Of a stretch of 64,000 nt of DNA, positions 1 to 5,953 are shown piece after piece. Within the stretch, counting starts at the first letter, position 1. Each line of letters opens with the position of its first letter. The notes below the pieces were generated by a model. It made no database searches. It was not told the origin of the DNA and worked only from the letters and a program-made list of their open reading frames with translations. Position numbers and translations under genes: made by a program. Source of the stretch: Trypanosoma brucei (Eukaryota); contig CP000071.1 in NCBI GenBank assembly GCA_000002445.1, forward strand, positions 1,760,001 through 1,824,000. Reading direction: 5' to 3'.

Positions 1-256
1 TTGGTATTTTATTGTCTCCTCTTCTGTTTCACCTGTAACCAACTCCGGCACTGTCGTCGTTTTTTTTCTCCATCTCTGTATATGTGAGAGTGCCCACTGC
101 ATTTCACTCCTCGATTTTTTCTTTTTTGTTTTATTTCCCTCCATTTGCATTTTCCTCGTTCCGGACTGTTGTTGTTCACTCTCCGACAATTTGTTGAAAT
201 ACAACGTGAGGGGGTTCTCATTGCCGTCACCCCTATTGTATGCTACTACGAGCTTC

Positions 257-1366
257 ATGGGTATGGGTCTCACCGGGATATGCCTCGCACTATTGGTTGC
301 AGTTTTCTCCTACACGGTGAACTGGGCACACTTCGACTTTAGTCTCGAGAGTAAGAGCCCGCATAACAGCGGCTGTTTGGAAAAGCCGCTTTGTGATGGC
401 CAGGTTAGTTTTATGGGGAGAGTTAAATGCCAGCTCTTCACCTACCCCGTCGATGTGGATAGACACGACTACAAGCGTGACGTGATGGGGAGGTTGGCAA
501 GGCTCTTGCAAAAGGGTCTTAAAGGACAACCGCATGTGGTTGAGGGTGTAAAGGGAGATATCGCGGTCAAACTAGCAAATCCGGGGAGGCCTTTAGTGTT
601 ACACTTCGCGGGTGACAATGGGGTGGGGAAAACGACGCTTGCGCAACTCATATCCCTTGCTCTCGCCTTTCGCTGCCGTGACATGTCGTGCCTGGTGGGT
701 GATACCTCCCTTGTGCTTTCCGGAGTAAGCTACGACGGTTACTCAGTGACAGACTTCCGCAGCGATGTGGTGCAGAAAATTGTGGAACACGCCAAGCGGT
801 ATCCACGAAACGGTGTTGTTATAGTCAACGACTTGAATGGCTTGCATCCGGATCTGGTGCGCGTTCTCCTTCCGCTATTCGGTAGGGCAACGACATTCCC
901 CGAGGCCTCTGACGCGCCACTCAACTACTTGACGGTGATAATAACAACAGACTTTGGTCGCCAAGGGCGAACACGGGGGAAGAGCTTATCAGATATGCGA
1001 CGTATCGTAGAAAGTGATTTTAAGAGTCTCTACTCGCAACTTTCTTCGTCTATGATACAAACCTATCCTTTCCTACCAGCGTCGTTGTCGACTGCGAGGG
1101 AAATAGTCCGAGCAACCGTCGATGGGTACCGCTGTGATAGTCGGCACGGGATTGGCAAACTGGATGTTGATGATGAGGTAGTTGAGTGGTTTATTGATTT
1201 GGTGAAGGACGATTTACCAGCGGAAAATGGACGTTGTGTTTCCAAAGCCGTGGTTGGAGTCGTTGGGCCCGCCGTGTTGCAACATCTCTCCAGCAGGTTA
1301 CCGAGTCTTGCCTCGCTGCGTGTGGTGCTTGATAGCGACGGCTCAGTTGCCGTGCGCGAGAACTAA
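257..1366 (+). CDS. Torsin-like AAA+ family protein. It has an N-terminal signal peptide or anchor, an intact Walker A (GDNGVGKTT) and a degenerate Walker B.
   Basis: The ORF track starts this ORF at a TTG (191); the first ATG is at 257. The N-terminus MGMGLTGICLALLVAVFSYTV is hydrophobic. The block NPGRPLVLHFAGDNGVGKTTLAQLI matches torsin NPKKPLTLSLHGWAGTGKN. VVIVNDLNGLHPDLVRVLLPLF aligns to torsin [22 protein letters not shown]. Length is 369 aa, torsin-like. Confidence 0.5.
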   Translation: MGMGLTGICLALLVAVFSYTVNWAHFDFSLESKSPHNSGCLEKPLCDGQVSFMGRVKCQLFTYPVDVDRHDYKRDVMGRLARLLQKGLKGQPHVVEGVKGDIAVKLANPGRPLVLHFAGDNGVGKTTLAQLISLALAFRCRDMSCLVGDTSLVLSGVSYDGYSVTDFRSDVVQKIVEHAKRYPRNGVVIVNDLNGLHPDLVRVLLPLFGRATTFPEASDAPLNYLTVIITTDFGRQGRTRGKSLSDMRRIVESDFKSLYSQLSSSMIQTYPFLPASLSTAREIVRATVDGYRCDSRHGIGKLDVDDEVVEWFIDLVKDDLPAENGRCVSKAVVGVVGPAVLQHLSSRLPSLASLRVVLDSDGSVAVREN

Positions 1367-1510
1367 TGGTCACACTATTTGGGGGCCTGGTCCCCGTTCG
1401 CCATCTCTCACGCAAGTATACTTGAGTCGTTTAGTGTGTGCCCGTTTTTTCACAGACTGGGGAAATGCACACTTCCATGGAGAGAACGTACACACGTGTG
1501 CACATTCGTC

Positions 1511-1645
1511 CGTTCTTATCCTACCATTCTTGTGGAGCGTTTTTGTTTTCTTTCCAGTGTTTCATCTTTCGCTGCATTTTCGTGTTCTCTTGGTCTACCA
1601 GCGCATCCAGTTCTCAACTCTATTCTATTTGAATTGTTGTTTTAG
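1511..1645 (+). promoter_or_regulatory. Polypyrimidine tract with AG dinucleotides; putative trans-splice acceptor region for RPL12
   Basis: Long C/T-rich run (ttttgttttctttccagtgtttcatctttcgctgcattttcgtgttctct...) ending in tttag, 20 nt upstream of the ATG. Confidence 0.45.
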
Positions 1646-1664
1646 AAAGGAGCCACAGCGAACC

Positions 1665-2159
1665 ATGCCTCCAAAGTTTGACCCCAATCAGGAGATCACA
1701 GTCGTCGTCCGTGCTGTGGGTGGTGAGGTGCCTGCAACGGCGTCACTCGCCCCCAAGGTTGGTCCACTCGGTTTGAATGCGAAAAAGATCGGTGAGGACA
1801 TCGCCAAATCCACGAAGGACTGGAAGGGTCTCAAGGTTACGTGTCAGCTGCGCGTAAAGAACCGTGTGGCTACCGTCGTCGTCACGCCATCTGTCGCCTC
1901 AAGGCTGATCCGTGCGCTGAAGGAGCCACCGCGCGATCGCAAGAAGGTGAAGAACATTAAGCATGACGGTAACATCGCCTTCTCTGAGATTCTGAAGATT
2001 GCGAAGGAGTCCGCGCCGAACTCTATGGGCGCCAGCATGAAATCTGTGGTGATGGAGGTACTTGGCACTGCCGTTTCCATCGGATGTACCATCGACGGTG
2101 AGCACCCGCGCGCGATTCAGGAGAAGGTTCAGGAAGGTAAGCTGAAGGTCCCCAACTAA
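1665..2159 (+). CDS. RPL12: 60S ribosomal protein L12 (uL11)
   Basis: MPPKFDPNQEITVVVRAVGGEVPATASLAPKVGPLGLNAKKIGEDIAK...; canonical L12/L11 sequence, 164 aa. The internal ATG lies inside a longer ORF-track ORF. Confidence 0.95.
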   Translation: MPPKFDPNQEITVVVRAVGGEVPATASLAPKVGPLGLNAKKIGEDIAKSTKDWKGLKVTCQLRVKNRVATVVVTPSVASRLIRALKEPPRDRKKVKNIKHDGNIAFSEILKIAKESAPNSMGASMKSVVMEVLGTAVSIGCTIDGEHPRAIQEKVQEGKLKVPN

Positions 2160-2456
2160 ACTTTGGTGGGTTCCTTTTTTTTCCTTTTGTTATTTATTTA
2201 GTTTTGTTTTTAACCATCCAATTGTTAATATCTAAAAGGAAAGGGGGGTGGCCGGCCCTCCCACAAGCCACCCATGCGGGTATCAGCTCTCTTTCTCAAG
2301 TGCATAACTGATGCGTCTCTTTTTGCAACCCTCTCCGTTCGCCTGCTCATTTTTTCTTTTACCTTTTCTTTATCCTCACATCGCTGAATCGCGTGCTGAA
2401 CAACACTACCAAATACATTAGAACACACAATGGGGACCATCAGCCGCCCTGGAGGG

Positions 2457-2534
2457 ATGCGGCCTAAGTGGCACAAGAAGCGCATAAAGCGCTTAAAGCG
2501 CCGACGACGACGCATGCGCCAGCGCTCCAAGTAA
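2457..2534 (+). CDS. RPL41: 60S ribosomal protein L41 (eL41), copy 1, 25 aa MRPKWHKKRIKRLKRRRRRMRQRSK
   Basis: Exact L41-type Arg/Lys-rich 25-mer. An in-frame upstream ATG at 2430 would add MGTISRPGG. Confidence 0.85.
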   Translation: MRPKWHKKRIKRLKRRRRRMRQRSK

Positions 2535-3003
2535 GCGCCCTGATGCATCGGTGAACATTCCTCGTGGTGCCGTTCAGTGCTCCTTTTTTGCGAGTTTCGC
2601 ACGCCGAACTCCCGATCAACGAAACGCATGCACATGTGCGTGCAACCTATTTATGGGTACGGAAACAAAGCATTTGATGTCTTCCCCCCTTTTTTCGTCG
2701 TCTAGTTACCTTTCCATTTTTCTACTTCTAGAGTGGAAACAAGTGTCAATGTTTTCTTCCCCTTTGGAGGTATGCCTGTGCTATAATGTTCCTTTCTTAT
2801 ATTATTGTCTTGGCCCTCACTCCTTTCTAACTGCTGTGGGCGACAGTCATACGCGCCCGGTGTTTGACTGCCGTCTGCTCACTTCAACCAACCTCCTGTT
2901 AACGCTTTCTCTTTTTTTTCTTTTGCGCTGCCTTTGTTTGTAACGTCTAAAACTACCAAATACATTAGAACACACAATGGGGACCATCAGCCGCCCTGGA
3001 GGG

Positions 3004-3081
3004 ATGCGGCCCAAGTGGCACAAGAAGCGCATAAAGCGCTTAAAGCGACGACGACGACGCATGCGCCAGCGCTCCAAGTAA
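3004..3081 (+). CDS. RPL41: 60S ribosomal protein L41, copy 2
   Basis: Identical peptide; upstream in-frame ATG at 2977. Confidence 0.85.
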   Translation: MRPKWHKKRIKRLKRRRRRMRQRSK

Positions 3082-3519
3082 GTGGACAGTCGAACCGCTG
3101 AACGATCCCGCGGTCGCGCGAATCAGTGTCGCTCACTTGTCTTGTCGCGCATGGATTCGTGGCAGGGGAACAACCCAAGTGTGTATTCACCCTTATGATT
3201 TGTTCCTTTTTTTTTTCTTCTGTTTTTGATACGCCGAGGAGCGGCCCTTTTTTCCCGTGTGGTTTGTTCTTTTGTTAGCGCTCTCCTTCAATACTGCGTG
3301 GTGTTCTGTTCACCGTACGGCAGTAAACCATCTCGGGGGCGGGGGGGGGGGTTCCCTTTTCCAAGGCTCACCTCACCAGAAGCCCGTGACAGTTTTTCTT
3401 ACTCTCTGCATCTTTCTTATCGACGGACGGCTCCCCATTGCTTTTTCTTTGCTTCCTTGCTTTCTTTATTTACTCTAGTCAGAAGGTGAAGGATGGGGAC
3501 CATCAGCCGCCCTGGAGGG

Positions 3520-3597
3520 ATGCGGCCCAAGTGGCACAAGAAGCGCATAAAGCGCTTAAAGCGCCGACGACGACGCATGCGCCAGCGCTCCAAGTAA
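3520..3597 (+). CDS. RPL41: 60S ribosomal protein L41, copy 3
   Basis: Identical peptide; upstream in-frame ATG at 3493. Confidence 0.85.
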   Translation: MRPKWHKKRIKRLKRRRRRMRQRSK

Positions 3598-4175
3598 GCG
3601 CCCTGATGCATCGAAAAGAGGTGCAATAAAGCGCGCTGGCGGCCGCCTCGGCGCCCCGTTTTGTCCGATACCTGGTTCGTACTGAGCCATCTCGCGCCTT
3701 AATATTTTTCTTTTGTTCTGGGAAGGCGTCTTAGGAGGGCATCCGATTGTACCGTTTCAGTGTTTTTGGCTGCTGCTTCTCCTCTACTACTATGTTTTGT
3801 CTCCTTCAGTTTTTTCCCTCTCATTCTTTGCCTCCCTTTTTGCAGGCTCCTGCAATTGGAATGGCTACGAGGTTTTGGAAGAAGGTCAACTGCCAGAGGA
3901 TGGGGGAAGAAGTCTAAAAGTAATCAGGGGAAAAGACAGCAGCAAAAAAAACATAACGGAATGTCTGGGTGAGTTGAGGCCCCTCTCGGGTGCCCGCCAA
4001 CGTCACTCTCTGGCTGTCTGCTTTTTTTTTTGTTTCGATTCCTCGCCTACAATGTGGACGGTAAGGGCCGCGTGCTTTCTTATTTTTCTACACAACTCAT
4101 CTGTGCACCTTCACCACCATTTCTCTTTCTTCTGCTTTCCCCTGTAATGATCTCGCTTCTGAAAGGCCGTAACTA

Positions 4176-4895
4176 ATGCACCCGCGATTGTCGGGGCAGG
4201 GCGTGTTTCCTCGCTATGGTGGCGGGTGGATGCATCAGTTCGGTCACGTGTACGCCCTTCAGCAGGAGCTGCTCAACGCTGAAGCAAACAACTGGTTCCG
4301 TGCGATGGAGTTGTGGCACACCGCTCGACACGAAGGGGTGGCAATGAATGTCTCCCACTACACAAACATCCTTCGCCAGTGTGTGCCTCCGACTGCATGG
4401 GAGGCCTCATTGATGGTATTGAAGCAAATGAGGCGGGAGAACATCCGACCAGATGTCGTTGGTGTCGGTTGCGCTCTTGCAGCCTGTGCTGACGCCAACC
4501 GCAGTGAGGAAGTGGAGAAAGTGTTTAGTTGCTTTAGCGGCAAGCTAAAGTTGGATAGTATTTGTTACCTTGCGCTCATTAAAGCCAAGATGTCCCGTGG
4601 AGGGTACGCTGAGGCTCTGGCTGTTGGAAGAGAACAAGACGCTGATGGGGTGCCTTTTCTTCCACACACGTATACGCACTTACTCGAAGCGGCGGAGGTG
4701 GCTGACGATGGTGAGATGGCATTGGAATTGGCGAGGCGGATGAGCAGCGAGCAGTGGCCGGTGTCCGATCGGGGACGGGAGGCACTCAAAAAATTGAGCA
4801 CCAGACACCATTGGGAGGAAGTGGCGGAGTACAAACAGTTTGTGGCAGTTGAGGATCATAAGTTATCGCTGCCCCCCACTTTACCTCGTGGTTGA
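4176..4895 (+). CDS. Small pentatricopeptide-repeat (PPR)-like protein, probably mitochondrial
   Basis: Tandem ~35-aa helical repeats with a PPR-like pattern (NVSHYTNILRQCVPPTAWEASLMVLKQMRRENIRPD; VVGVGCALAACADANRSEEVEKVFSCFSGKLKLD; SICYLALIKAKMSRGGYAEALAV). Confidence 0.5.
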   Translation: MHPRLSGQGVFPRYGGGWMHQFGHVYALQQELLNAEANNWFRAMELWHTARHEGVAMNVSHYTNILRQCVPPTAWEASLMVLKQMRRENIRPDVVGVGCALAACADANRSEEVEKVFSCFSGKLKLDSICYLALIKAKMSRGGYAEALAVGREQDADGVPFLPHTYTHLLEAAEVADDGEMALELARRMSSEQWPVSDRGREALKKLSTRHHWEEVAEYKQFVAVEDHKLSLPPTLPRG

Positions 4896-5191: not shown

Positions 5192-5953
5192 ATGCCTCCT
5201 AAGAGACCACCCCGCGCGCGTCGCACAAAAGAGAGTGCGAAGGCCGTAATATCACCCCAAGAAAAGCCACTGACGTCGTCATCTTCTGGCGAAGCGTTGG
5301 GTGGTAGTGGTAATGAAGTAAAAAGAACAAATGAGACACCGGTTGCTAGAGTCGCGCGCCCACTGAACAGTCCGTCCGTTCGTGCAGTGAGTGAAAAAGC
5401 GCCGAGCCCAACGGGCTTCGGACCGTGCCATGTAATTGGTGTCCTTTTAGCTGTTGTACTCACGTGTGTTTGGTCCATTTTCCCCCCGTGGGATGCGACC
5501 GATGCTCCTCCTTGCCACTGTTTCCCAGCGGGAGGTGAAGTACAACAGGCCATTGCGAGCAGGATGTTTGGTGTCACTGGCATTCATCTTCGGGGTGCCG
5601 GCCACTCCGCCGTAGAGGAGAGTTTAAGGGGGCTATCATCGTGCGGGAAGCTGTACACACTAGAAAACCAGTTTGACGGCGTTGGTTCGTTTATGCAACG
5701 TTTGCAGCATGATGCCAAAGGGACGCGTTGTGTTGTTTGGTTGGTTAAGGATCTCTCAGTTGTAAAGCATGTTGACAACGCGTTGAAGGAGCTTCTAGAG
5801 GATAATACACTTCGCGGGAATCGTATTCTCCCCGATGGGGCGCGTGGCCTGTTTATCGTGTTGTCCAATCAGAGCCGAGAGGAAATAAAAGGGTTGCTGC
5901 CTCACCGTGTTGTTCACCAGTTCCGCACAATCAACCTTCCGGCGAAGAAATGA
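5192..5953 (+). CDS. Hypothetical type-II membrane protein with a degenerate torsin/AAA+-like luminal domain (LAP1/LULL1-like architecture)
   Basis: Basic Ser/Pro-rich N-terminal 80 aa, then a TM helix (HVIGVLLAVVLTCVWSIF). The next domain has degenerate P-loop (IHLRGAGHSAVEES), Walker-B-like (CVVWLVKDLSVVKHVDNALKELLED) and sensor-1-like (GLFIVLSNQSR) blocks. FMQRLQHDAKG matches torsin YQDQLQKWIRG. Confidence 0.45.
   Translation: MPPKRPPRARRTKESAKAVISPQEKPLTSSSSGEALGGSGNEVKRTNETPVARVARPLNSPSVRAVSEKAPSPTGFGPCHVIGVLLAVVLTCVWSIFPPWDATDAPPCHCFPAGGEVQQAIASRMFGVTGIHLRGAGHSAVEESLRGLSSCGKLYTLENQFDGVGSFMQRLQHDAKGTRCVVWLVKDLSVVKHVDNALKELLEDNTLRGNRILPDGARGLFIVLSNQSREEIKGLLPHRVVHQFRTINLPAKK

Follow-up and report, generated by a model that had tools for sequence, protein, structure and literature searches.

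To our knowledge, no AAA+ ATPases other than torsins reside in the endoplasmic reticulum (ER) lumen and nuclear envelope, and we know of no identified substrate. Unusually, torsins hydrolyse ATP only with the help of a membrane-bound AAA+-like protein that is itself catalytically dead, LAP1 or LULL1; as far as we know, metazoan torsins associate with these activators in the ATP state alone. LAP1 and LULL1 have lost the nucleotide motifs that act in cis and have kept an arginine that acts in trans (R563 and R449, respectively; PMC4358337, PMC4999309). The literature regards both partners as metazoan, and a survey of nuclear-envelope genes puts Tor1aip2 among those restricted to Metazoa (PMC7889174). 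The torsin homologues of kinetoplastids, recognized only recently, form two paralogous families, of which one (“ERIKA”) carries a KDEL-like signal and the other does not; no cofactor was reported for them (PMC10903960). Here we analyze Tb927.8.6050 (UniProt Q57YK6; “hypothetical protein, conserved”), a gene at positions 5192-5953 on the plus strand of a 64,000-nucleotide stretch of Trypanosoma brucei chromosome 8 (GenBank contig CP000071.1, positions 1,760,001 to 1,824,000), which we call the window and to which all positions refer. The best explanation of its sequence is that it encodes a type-II membrane protein that is specific to kinetoplastids and belongs to the ER/nuclear envelope, and this protein very probably carries a degenerate AAA+ domain on its type-II anchor. 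More tentatively, we favor for it a role as an arginine-finger-donating cofactor or tether of the kinetoplastid torsin-like ATPases, to which we give slightly less than an even chance. A literature search found a description neither of Tb927.8.6050 nor of any non-metazoan torsin activator.

An original prediction, made from the letters of the window alone, had described the 253-residue product as a basic, Ser/Pro-rich tail followed by a single transmembrane (TM) helix and about 150 further residues, and the composition, hydropathy and open reading frame (ORF) all agree with that description. Residues 1-78 contain 14 Lys/Arg against 6 Asp/Glu and 28 Ser/Pro/Thr, have an isoelectric point of 11.3 and are modelled at low confidence (predicted local distance difference test, pLDDT, 48-69). 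They lead into the sole strongly hydrophobic segment of the protein, where the strongest 19-mer is aa 79-97 (Kyte-Doolittle 2.37) and the helix of the structure model spans aa 78-96. The flank on the C-terminal side of this helix is acidic and bears a PCHC motif, and the four conserved cysteines (C108, C110, C151 and C180) all lie on the side predicted to be luminal. All counts of conservation given here come from an alignment of 39 family members, in which C151 is invariant, C180 is kept in 34, the N-terminal tail is net basic in nearly all and a hydrophobic 19-mer (Kyte-Doolittle at least 1.6) stands just before the domain in 34. With one TM helix, a basic N-terminal side, an acidic C-terminal flank and cysteines on the C-terminal side, the topology is predicted to be type II, as had been proposed. 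The tail is otherwise unconserved, and many family members start with MPPK(R/K), MAPK or similar (5192-5230 in the window) followed by clusters of Lys/Arg, which could serve in nuclear localisation, in sorting to the inner nuclear membrane or in binding DNA.

When the region beyond the membrane was modelled by AlphaFold2 with the 39-sequence alignment, aa ~110-250 reached a pLDDT of 90-98 and adopted the AAA+-like fold that had been suggested for it, with the order α0, β1, α1, β2, α2, β3, α3, β-hairpin, β4, α4, short helix, β5. The motifs picked out originally fall at the proposed places, namely the β1-α1 loop (within IHLRGAGHSAVEES, the β1-loop-α1 stretch expected to hold any P-loop), α2 (FMQRLQHDAKG), β3 and β4. 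The hairpin ahead of β4 occupies aa 206-211 in the secondary-structure string of the model, and a β-hairpin between α3 and β4 is a feature of the HCLR clade, which includes torsin (PMC4999309). Searches with single sequences and family libraries were negative: no Pfam family matched Tb927.8.6050 or any of the 39 members at E ≤ 1, NCBIfam returned nothing relevant for Tb927.8.6050, a phmmer search of PDB chains with the target and a family-profile search (which came back empty) gave no LAP1/LULL1 chain at E ≤ 10, and BLASTP found no significant match between Tb927.8.6050 and Tb927.8.6020, a torsin-like protein encoded 4 kb upstream.

Profile-profile comparison with hhalign aligned the luminal domain to T. 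thermophilus ClpB-D2 (E 0.0017), to the Tb927.8.6020 family (E 0.006) and to human TorsinA (E 0.011; the query sequence is 100% identical to 6OIF_A). All three comparisons share one register through the Walker-B strand, α3, the hairpin and the sensor-1 strand; in each of them all 60 column shuffles fell short of the observed score, and reversed templates scored lower too. In this register CVVWLVKD is paired with SIFIFDEMD of TorsinA, SVILFDEIE of ClpB-D2 and GVVIVNDLN of Tb927.8.6020, ALKELLEDNTLRG is paired with ILLQILDDGRLTD (ClpB-D2) and AIKPFLDYYDLVDG (TorsinA), which are also the counterparts of the whole aa 196-211 block, and GLFIVLSN is paired with the sensor-1 strand. The torsin matches noticed originally thus survive profile-profile alignment, with a weak signal. 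Torsin/Clp-D2 proteins are the sole proteins with a significant profile alignment to the luminal domain, from β3 to β4. The target resembles torsins and the Clp/Hsp100 D2 domains (HCLR clade), the kinetoplastid torsin homologues of PMC10903960 included, in this consistent β3-β4 register, in the modelled pre-β4 hairpin and in the predicted ER-lumen compartment; it differs from them in having no P-loop, Walker-B acidic pair, conserved sensor-1, sensor-2 or small domain, and in missing the long insertion between sensor-1 and the finger helix. The model and the alignments together indicate that the C-terminal part of the protein amounts to a minimal AAA+ large domain, catalytically dead and akin to the Clp-D2/torsin group.

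Conservation in this domain is reversed relative to that expected of an enzyme: across the 39 sequences the nucleotide-motif positions vary, and R239, K199 and C151 are fixed. The P-loop is indeed lost, as the original prediction stated, with no GK[ST] in a Walker-A loop that varies across the family. Its sensor-1 segment is correctly aligned to the sensor-1 strand but cannot be called well preserved, N226 (the sensor-1 Asn) being confined to some few sequences from Trypanosoma. With Walker A, Walker B and sensor-1 all lost and their positions free to vary, the domain is predicted to be unable to bind nucleotide. Beyond the three invariant positions, C180, L198, E200, E203, L207, P237, H238, V241 and H242 are each kept in 33-34 members, and within LPHRVVH the counts are 34 for P237, H238 and H242 and 33 for V241. 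Of the two arginines after sensor-1 to which attention had been drawn, R239 (LPHR) is invariant but R229 (SNQSR) is less conserved, and R239 is therefore the sole credible finger candidate.

R239 lies in a short helix, 13 residues past the sensor-1 position and 5 ahead of β5. Every member of the family ends 8-38 residues beyond its equivalent (14 residues in Tb927.8.6050), and none has a C-terminal small domain. The arginine finger of Clp-D2 is found at the equivalent place (FLNRLD-EIVVF), and classical AAA+ proteins carry arginine fingers at such a position. R239 is accordingly predicted to hold the position from which AAA+ subunits reach the ATP site of a neighbor. The same principle operates in the δ′ subunit of the bacterial clamp loader, a dead AAA+ subunit that lends a trans-acting arginine to the active site of its neighbor; unlike the target, δ′-type subunits are soluble, keep their small (lid) domain, belong to another AAA+ clade and have an unrelated role.

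A candidate recipient for such a finger is encoded nearby. The product of 257..1366, Tb927.8.6020 (369 aa, 40.3 kDa), had been proposed as the partner. A hydrophobic segment at its N terminus is accompanied by conserved luminal cysteines and by a torsin/Clp-D2-type AAA+ module that is complete, with large and small domains; its family profile matches ClpB-D2 at E 1e-18, and in TrypTag the N-terminally tagged protein localizes to the ER, to the nuclear envelope and to the region of the flagellar pocket. Its AlphaFold2 model (pLDDT 89; predicted template modelling score, pTM, 0.85) is nearest to ClpA-D2 (21.6), CLPB (21.5), ClpB-NBD2 (20.9) and TorsinA (19.9), of which TorsinA gives the lowest root-mean-square deviation; LULL1 ranks 12. 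The torsin-like sequences recovered here fall into the two groups of PMC10903960. Walker A, Walker B, sensor-1, sensor-2 and a small domain are all present in Tb927.8.6020, Walker B being an unusual N[DE] and the sensor-1 residue an Asp. At aa ~186-196 the trypanosomatid Walker B reads hhhhN[D/E] (VVIVNDL), whereas DD or DE stands here in the ERIKA paralogues and in some of the outgroup orthologues; at aa ~226-242 the sensor-1 position is Asp (TTDFG), not Asn, followed by a near-invariant basic loop, GR(Q/E)GRT(R/Q)GK. With this non-canonical catalytic core, Tb927.8.6020 may or may not be self-sufficient in ATP hydrolysis. A Ser-Ser-Ser sequence (LSSSMIQTYPF) is aligned to the ClpB-D2 finger NRLD, in an alignment uncertain by a few residues, and no conserved Arg is found there in Trypanosoma. 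On these sequences an ATPase without its own arginine finger is probable for Trypanosoma and not secure for the family.

Two further observations concern Tb927.8.6020. A few of its peptides appear in the supplementary mass spectrometry (MS) table of a trypanosome nuclear-envelope LAP study (PMC11018031), amid obvious background proteins; alone these are uninformative, and they are compatible with an ER/nuclear-envelope location. The C termini of its trypanosomatid orthologues have no KDEL-like end (…VREN, …EMTC; 1352-1366 in the window), distant orthologues end in xDL/xEL (SDL, DEL, SEL, HEL, KEL), and all ERIKA-type paralogues end in xDL or a DDF-like sequence, from which the ER-retention signal seems to have been lost in one lineage of orthologues. 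A correlation of this loss with gain of the membrane partner (the Tb927.8.6050 family) was considered and rejected, as that family also occurs together with an orthologue that ends in HEL.

In the mechanism that we favor, the domain of Tb927.8.6050 would dock on a torsin-like ATPase of the lumen, at its nucleotide face, with Tb927.8.6020 and/or the KDEL-type paralogue (ERIKA) as candidates. R239 would be inserted to complete the ATPase active site and the ATPase would be tethered to the membrane, as by LAP1/LULL1 with metazoan torsins, and the basic disordered tail would lie on the cytoplasmic or nucleoplasmic side, where it may serve as an address for the inner nuclear membrane or for chromatin. 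In broader terms, we consider it quite possible, if still short of probable, that kinetoplastids have a “split active site” torsin system in which a nucleotide-free AAA+ module of ~140 residues on a type-II anchor gives both the finger and a membrane/nuclear-envelope address, the module having evolved by degeneration of a Clp-D2/torsin-type gene, independently of LAP1/LULL1. Were this so, activator-dependent torsins would be ancient or would have arisen twice; a kinetoplastid protein of LAP1/LULL1 design would make the activator principle older or more easily evolved than thought. Trypanosomes would then offer a genetically tractable system with a very small activator for studying the role of torsin at the nuclear envelope, the smaller activator domain would be useful for mechanistic work, and the trypanosome nuclear-envelope field would gain a new candidate inner-membrane protein. 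If the torsin link fails, a defined, conserved pseudo-AAA+ membrane family that is currently without annotation is still left.

The comparison to LAP1 (TOR1AIP1) and LULL1 (TOR1AIP2) made in the original prediction stands for the overall design and falls for the details of sequence, nearest structures and disulfide. Like them, Tb927.8.6050 has a predicted type-II layout with a disordered basic N-terminal part, one TM helix and an AAA+-like luminal domain, lacks Walker A, Walker B and the small domain, and has a strictly conserved arginine near its C terminus at the AAA+ finger position; the same genome also encodes torsin-type luminal ATPases, in which the canonical finger is probably missing. 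In contrast to them, it shares no detectable sequence similarity, its conserved cysteines lie next to the membrane (PCxC), where α1 ends and where β3 starts, and its lineage is Kinetoplastea rather than Metazoa.

Several results weigh against a LAP1/LULL1-like role as a torsin cofactor. The luminal domain is ~140 aa, about 95 shorter than those of LAP1/LULL1 (228-235 aa, LULL1 235), and it has no counterpart of their disulfide from α1 to the C terminus (C424-C582 in LAP1, C310-C468 in LULL1), because the 253-residue target has no Cys after C180. Its structural matches span AAA+ clades, NSF-D2, dynein, NorQ and ORC equalling CLPB and TorsinA, and LULL1 (5j1s_B) was in the searched structure library yet lies outside the top 60 matches. 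Pairwise E-values of about 1e-2 to 1e-3 make for a weak similarity to torsin/Clp-D2, and hhalign against the ERIKA paralogue family gave just an irrelevant 16-column match. Most non-Trypanosoma members of both torsin-like families have an Arg three residues past the canonical finger, inside the predicted β5, and the proteins outside Trypanosoma may need no trans finger. Proximity of the torsin-like and target genes is not evidence for shared function in polycistronic trypanosomatid genomes, and hyperLOPIT, the tables of two nuclear-envelope papers and the TrypTag rows listed gave no record of where Tb927.8.6050 localises or what it interacts with.

These points bear on three other readings. 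The strongest, a serious possibility to which we nonetheless give less weight than to either torsin proposal above, is that Tb927.8.6050 is a degenerate AAA+-fold membrane protein of the ER/nuclear envelope whose job is unrelated to torsin-like ATPases: the luminal domain would be an oligomerisation or scaffold module, the basic tail would tether chromatin or ribonucleoprotein, and R239 and K199 would be kept for folding or for another ligand. Fold and topology fit this equally well, no experiment ties Tb927.8.6050 to torsin, and the structural neighbors come from many AAA+ clades. Active Clp-D2 proteins conserve the block LKELLEDNxLRG as a structural element too, and it therefore need not mark an interface. 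What this account leaves aside is that dead subunits which activate in trans are typified by an invariant Arg exactly at the finger position and by cis nucleotide motifs that have been lost completely, and that torsin-like ATPases which probably lack a canonical finger co-occur with the target family.

That Tb927.8.6050 is instead a highly diverged but true LAP1/LULL1 orthologue, so that a torsin-activator pair would date from the last eukaryotic common ancestor, appears unlikely. The overall architecture and the logic of the conserved Arg are shared, but there is no sequence signal in Pfam (39 members) or in the PDB profile search, the disulfide and the ~95 residues are absent, and the family was recovered only on kinetoplastid-type contigs with densely packed, same-strand genes. 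Because of the differences in sequence, structural neighbors, length and disulfide, together with the Metazoa-restricted Tor1aip2, we do not file Tb927.8.6050 in the LAP1/LULL1 family; it is better described as a kinetoplastid pseudo-AAA+ membrane protein that may well act as LAP1/LULL1 do, most likely as a lineage-specific analogue rather than an orthologue, and that perhaps arose from a torsin-like gene of kinetoplastids. A mitochondrial protein, anchored in the inner membrane with its domain in the intermembrane space or matrix, is very improbable: the database name of the Leptomonas member (“putative mitochondrial hypothetical protein”), the basic N terminus, cysteines that would also suit the intermembrane space and detection in organelle-enriched fractions speak for it, but the T. 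brucei importome study counts Tb927.8.6050 in its reference set of non-mitochondrial proteins, its abundance is unchanged on ERV1 knockdown (fold change 0.90, p 0.80) and its Pro- and charge-rich start, MPPKRPPRARR, would make a poor amphipathic presequence.

A word-indexed search for relatives returned Trypanosoma only, and an exhaustive profile search matched 43 clusters at 50% identity. The named members are from Trypanosoma species and Leptomonas pyrrhocoris, and the traceable unnamed distant members sit on contigs whose genes are tightly packed on one strand, like the polycistrons of kinetoplastids; on this evidence the family appears restricted to kinetoplastids. The gene order torsin-like, RPL12, three RPL41 copies, PPR, target is the same in T. 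brucei and L. pyrrhocoris, and a distant kinetoplastid-like assembly (SRR7467761) holds both target-family and torsin-like members. Gene pairs common to T. brucei, Leptomonas and SRR7467761 indicate that the micro-synteny is very old.

Table. Coordinates of the target gene, its parts, the candidate partner and other features, in the window unless a contig is named.
Feature	Position	Strand	Remarks
Target ORF	5192..5953	+	ATG to TGA, 253 aa plus stop; T. brucei chromosome 8
Basic Ser/Pro/Thr-rich tail, aa 1-78	5192..5425	+	Predicted cytoplasmic or nucleoplasmic side
Single TM helix CHVIGVLLAVVLTCVWSIFPP, aa 79-99	5426..5488	+	Predicted type-II signal anchor
PCHC, juxtamembrane CxC motif, aa 107-110	5510..5521	+	Family alignments
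AAA+-like α/β domain without nucleotide motifs, aa 112-250	5525..5941	+	
LRGAGHS, aa 133-139, β1-α1 loop at Walker-A position	5588..5608	+	No GK[ST]; loop short, variable across family
CVVWLVKD, aa 180-187, β3, Walker-B-position strand	5729..5752	+	Acidic pair not conserved
NALKELLEDNTLRGNR, aa 196-211, end of α3 and pre-β4 β-hairpin	5777..5824	+	Most conserved block; K199 invariant
RGLFIVLSNQ, aa 218-227, β4, sensor-1-position strand	5843..5872	+	N226 not conserved
LPHRVVH, aa 236-242, with R239 (codon 5906-5908)	5897..5917	+	Candidate trans-acting arginine finger
Candidate partner Tb927.8.6020	257..1366	+	TrypTag tagging primer for this gene matches exactly at 1325-1363
Ribosomal protein L41 ORFs	2430-2534, 2977-3081, 3493-3597		
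KRIPP11, 27-kDa PPR protein, Tb927.8.6040	4176-4895		Calculated 26.898 kDa, equal to published value
TBBC, Tb927.8.6070	8762-13000		Published primer matches at 10414-10433
PPR gene, then target homologue	SRR7467761_4950, 97-1801		
Cob_adeno_trans gene, then torsin-like gene	SRR7467761_9026, 1-2164		

The ORF at 5192-5953 was identified as Tb927.8.6050 because it sits between assigned neighbor genes, the flanking ones being KRIPP11/Tb927.8.6040 and AKCT/Tb927.8.6060; its calculated mass, 27.343 kDa, is also the one listed for Tb927.8.6050/Q57YK6 in a published table. A protein of T. b. equiperdum is 98% identical to it. Published proteomes of procyclic cells list 2-3 peptides of Tb927.8.6050, detected by MS in organelle-enriched fractions, and the protein is therefore expressed.

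Elsewhere in the window, positions 2402-3624 hold three tandem copies of a 160-nt unit, each with a ribosomal protein L41 ORF (MGTISRPGGMRPKWHKKRIKRLKRRRRRMRQRSK), a triple arrangement that is also present in Leptomonas. The long Arg-rich minus-strand ORFs over this array (e.g., 2225-2635) are mirror-image artefacts of its Lys/Arg codons. A stretch of ~3 kb at 15400-18350 has no ORF of at least 150 aa on either strand and no detected tandem repeats, and nowhere in the window is the G+C content lower than between 16 and 20 kb (0.335-0.387 vs ~0.45-0.53 elsewhere); the 15400-18350 stretch may be a long untranslated region, an intergenic region or a strand-switch-like feature.

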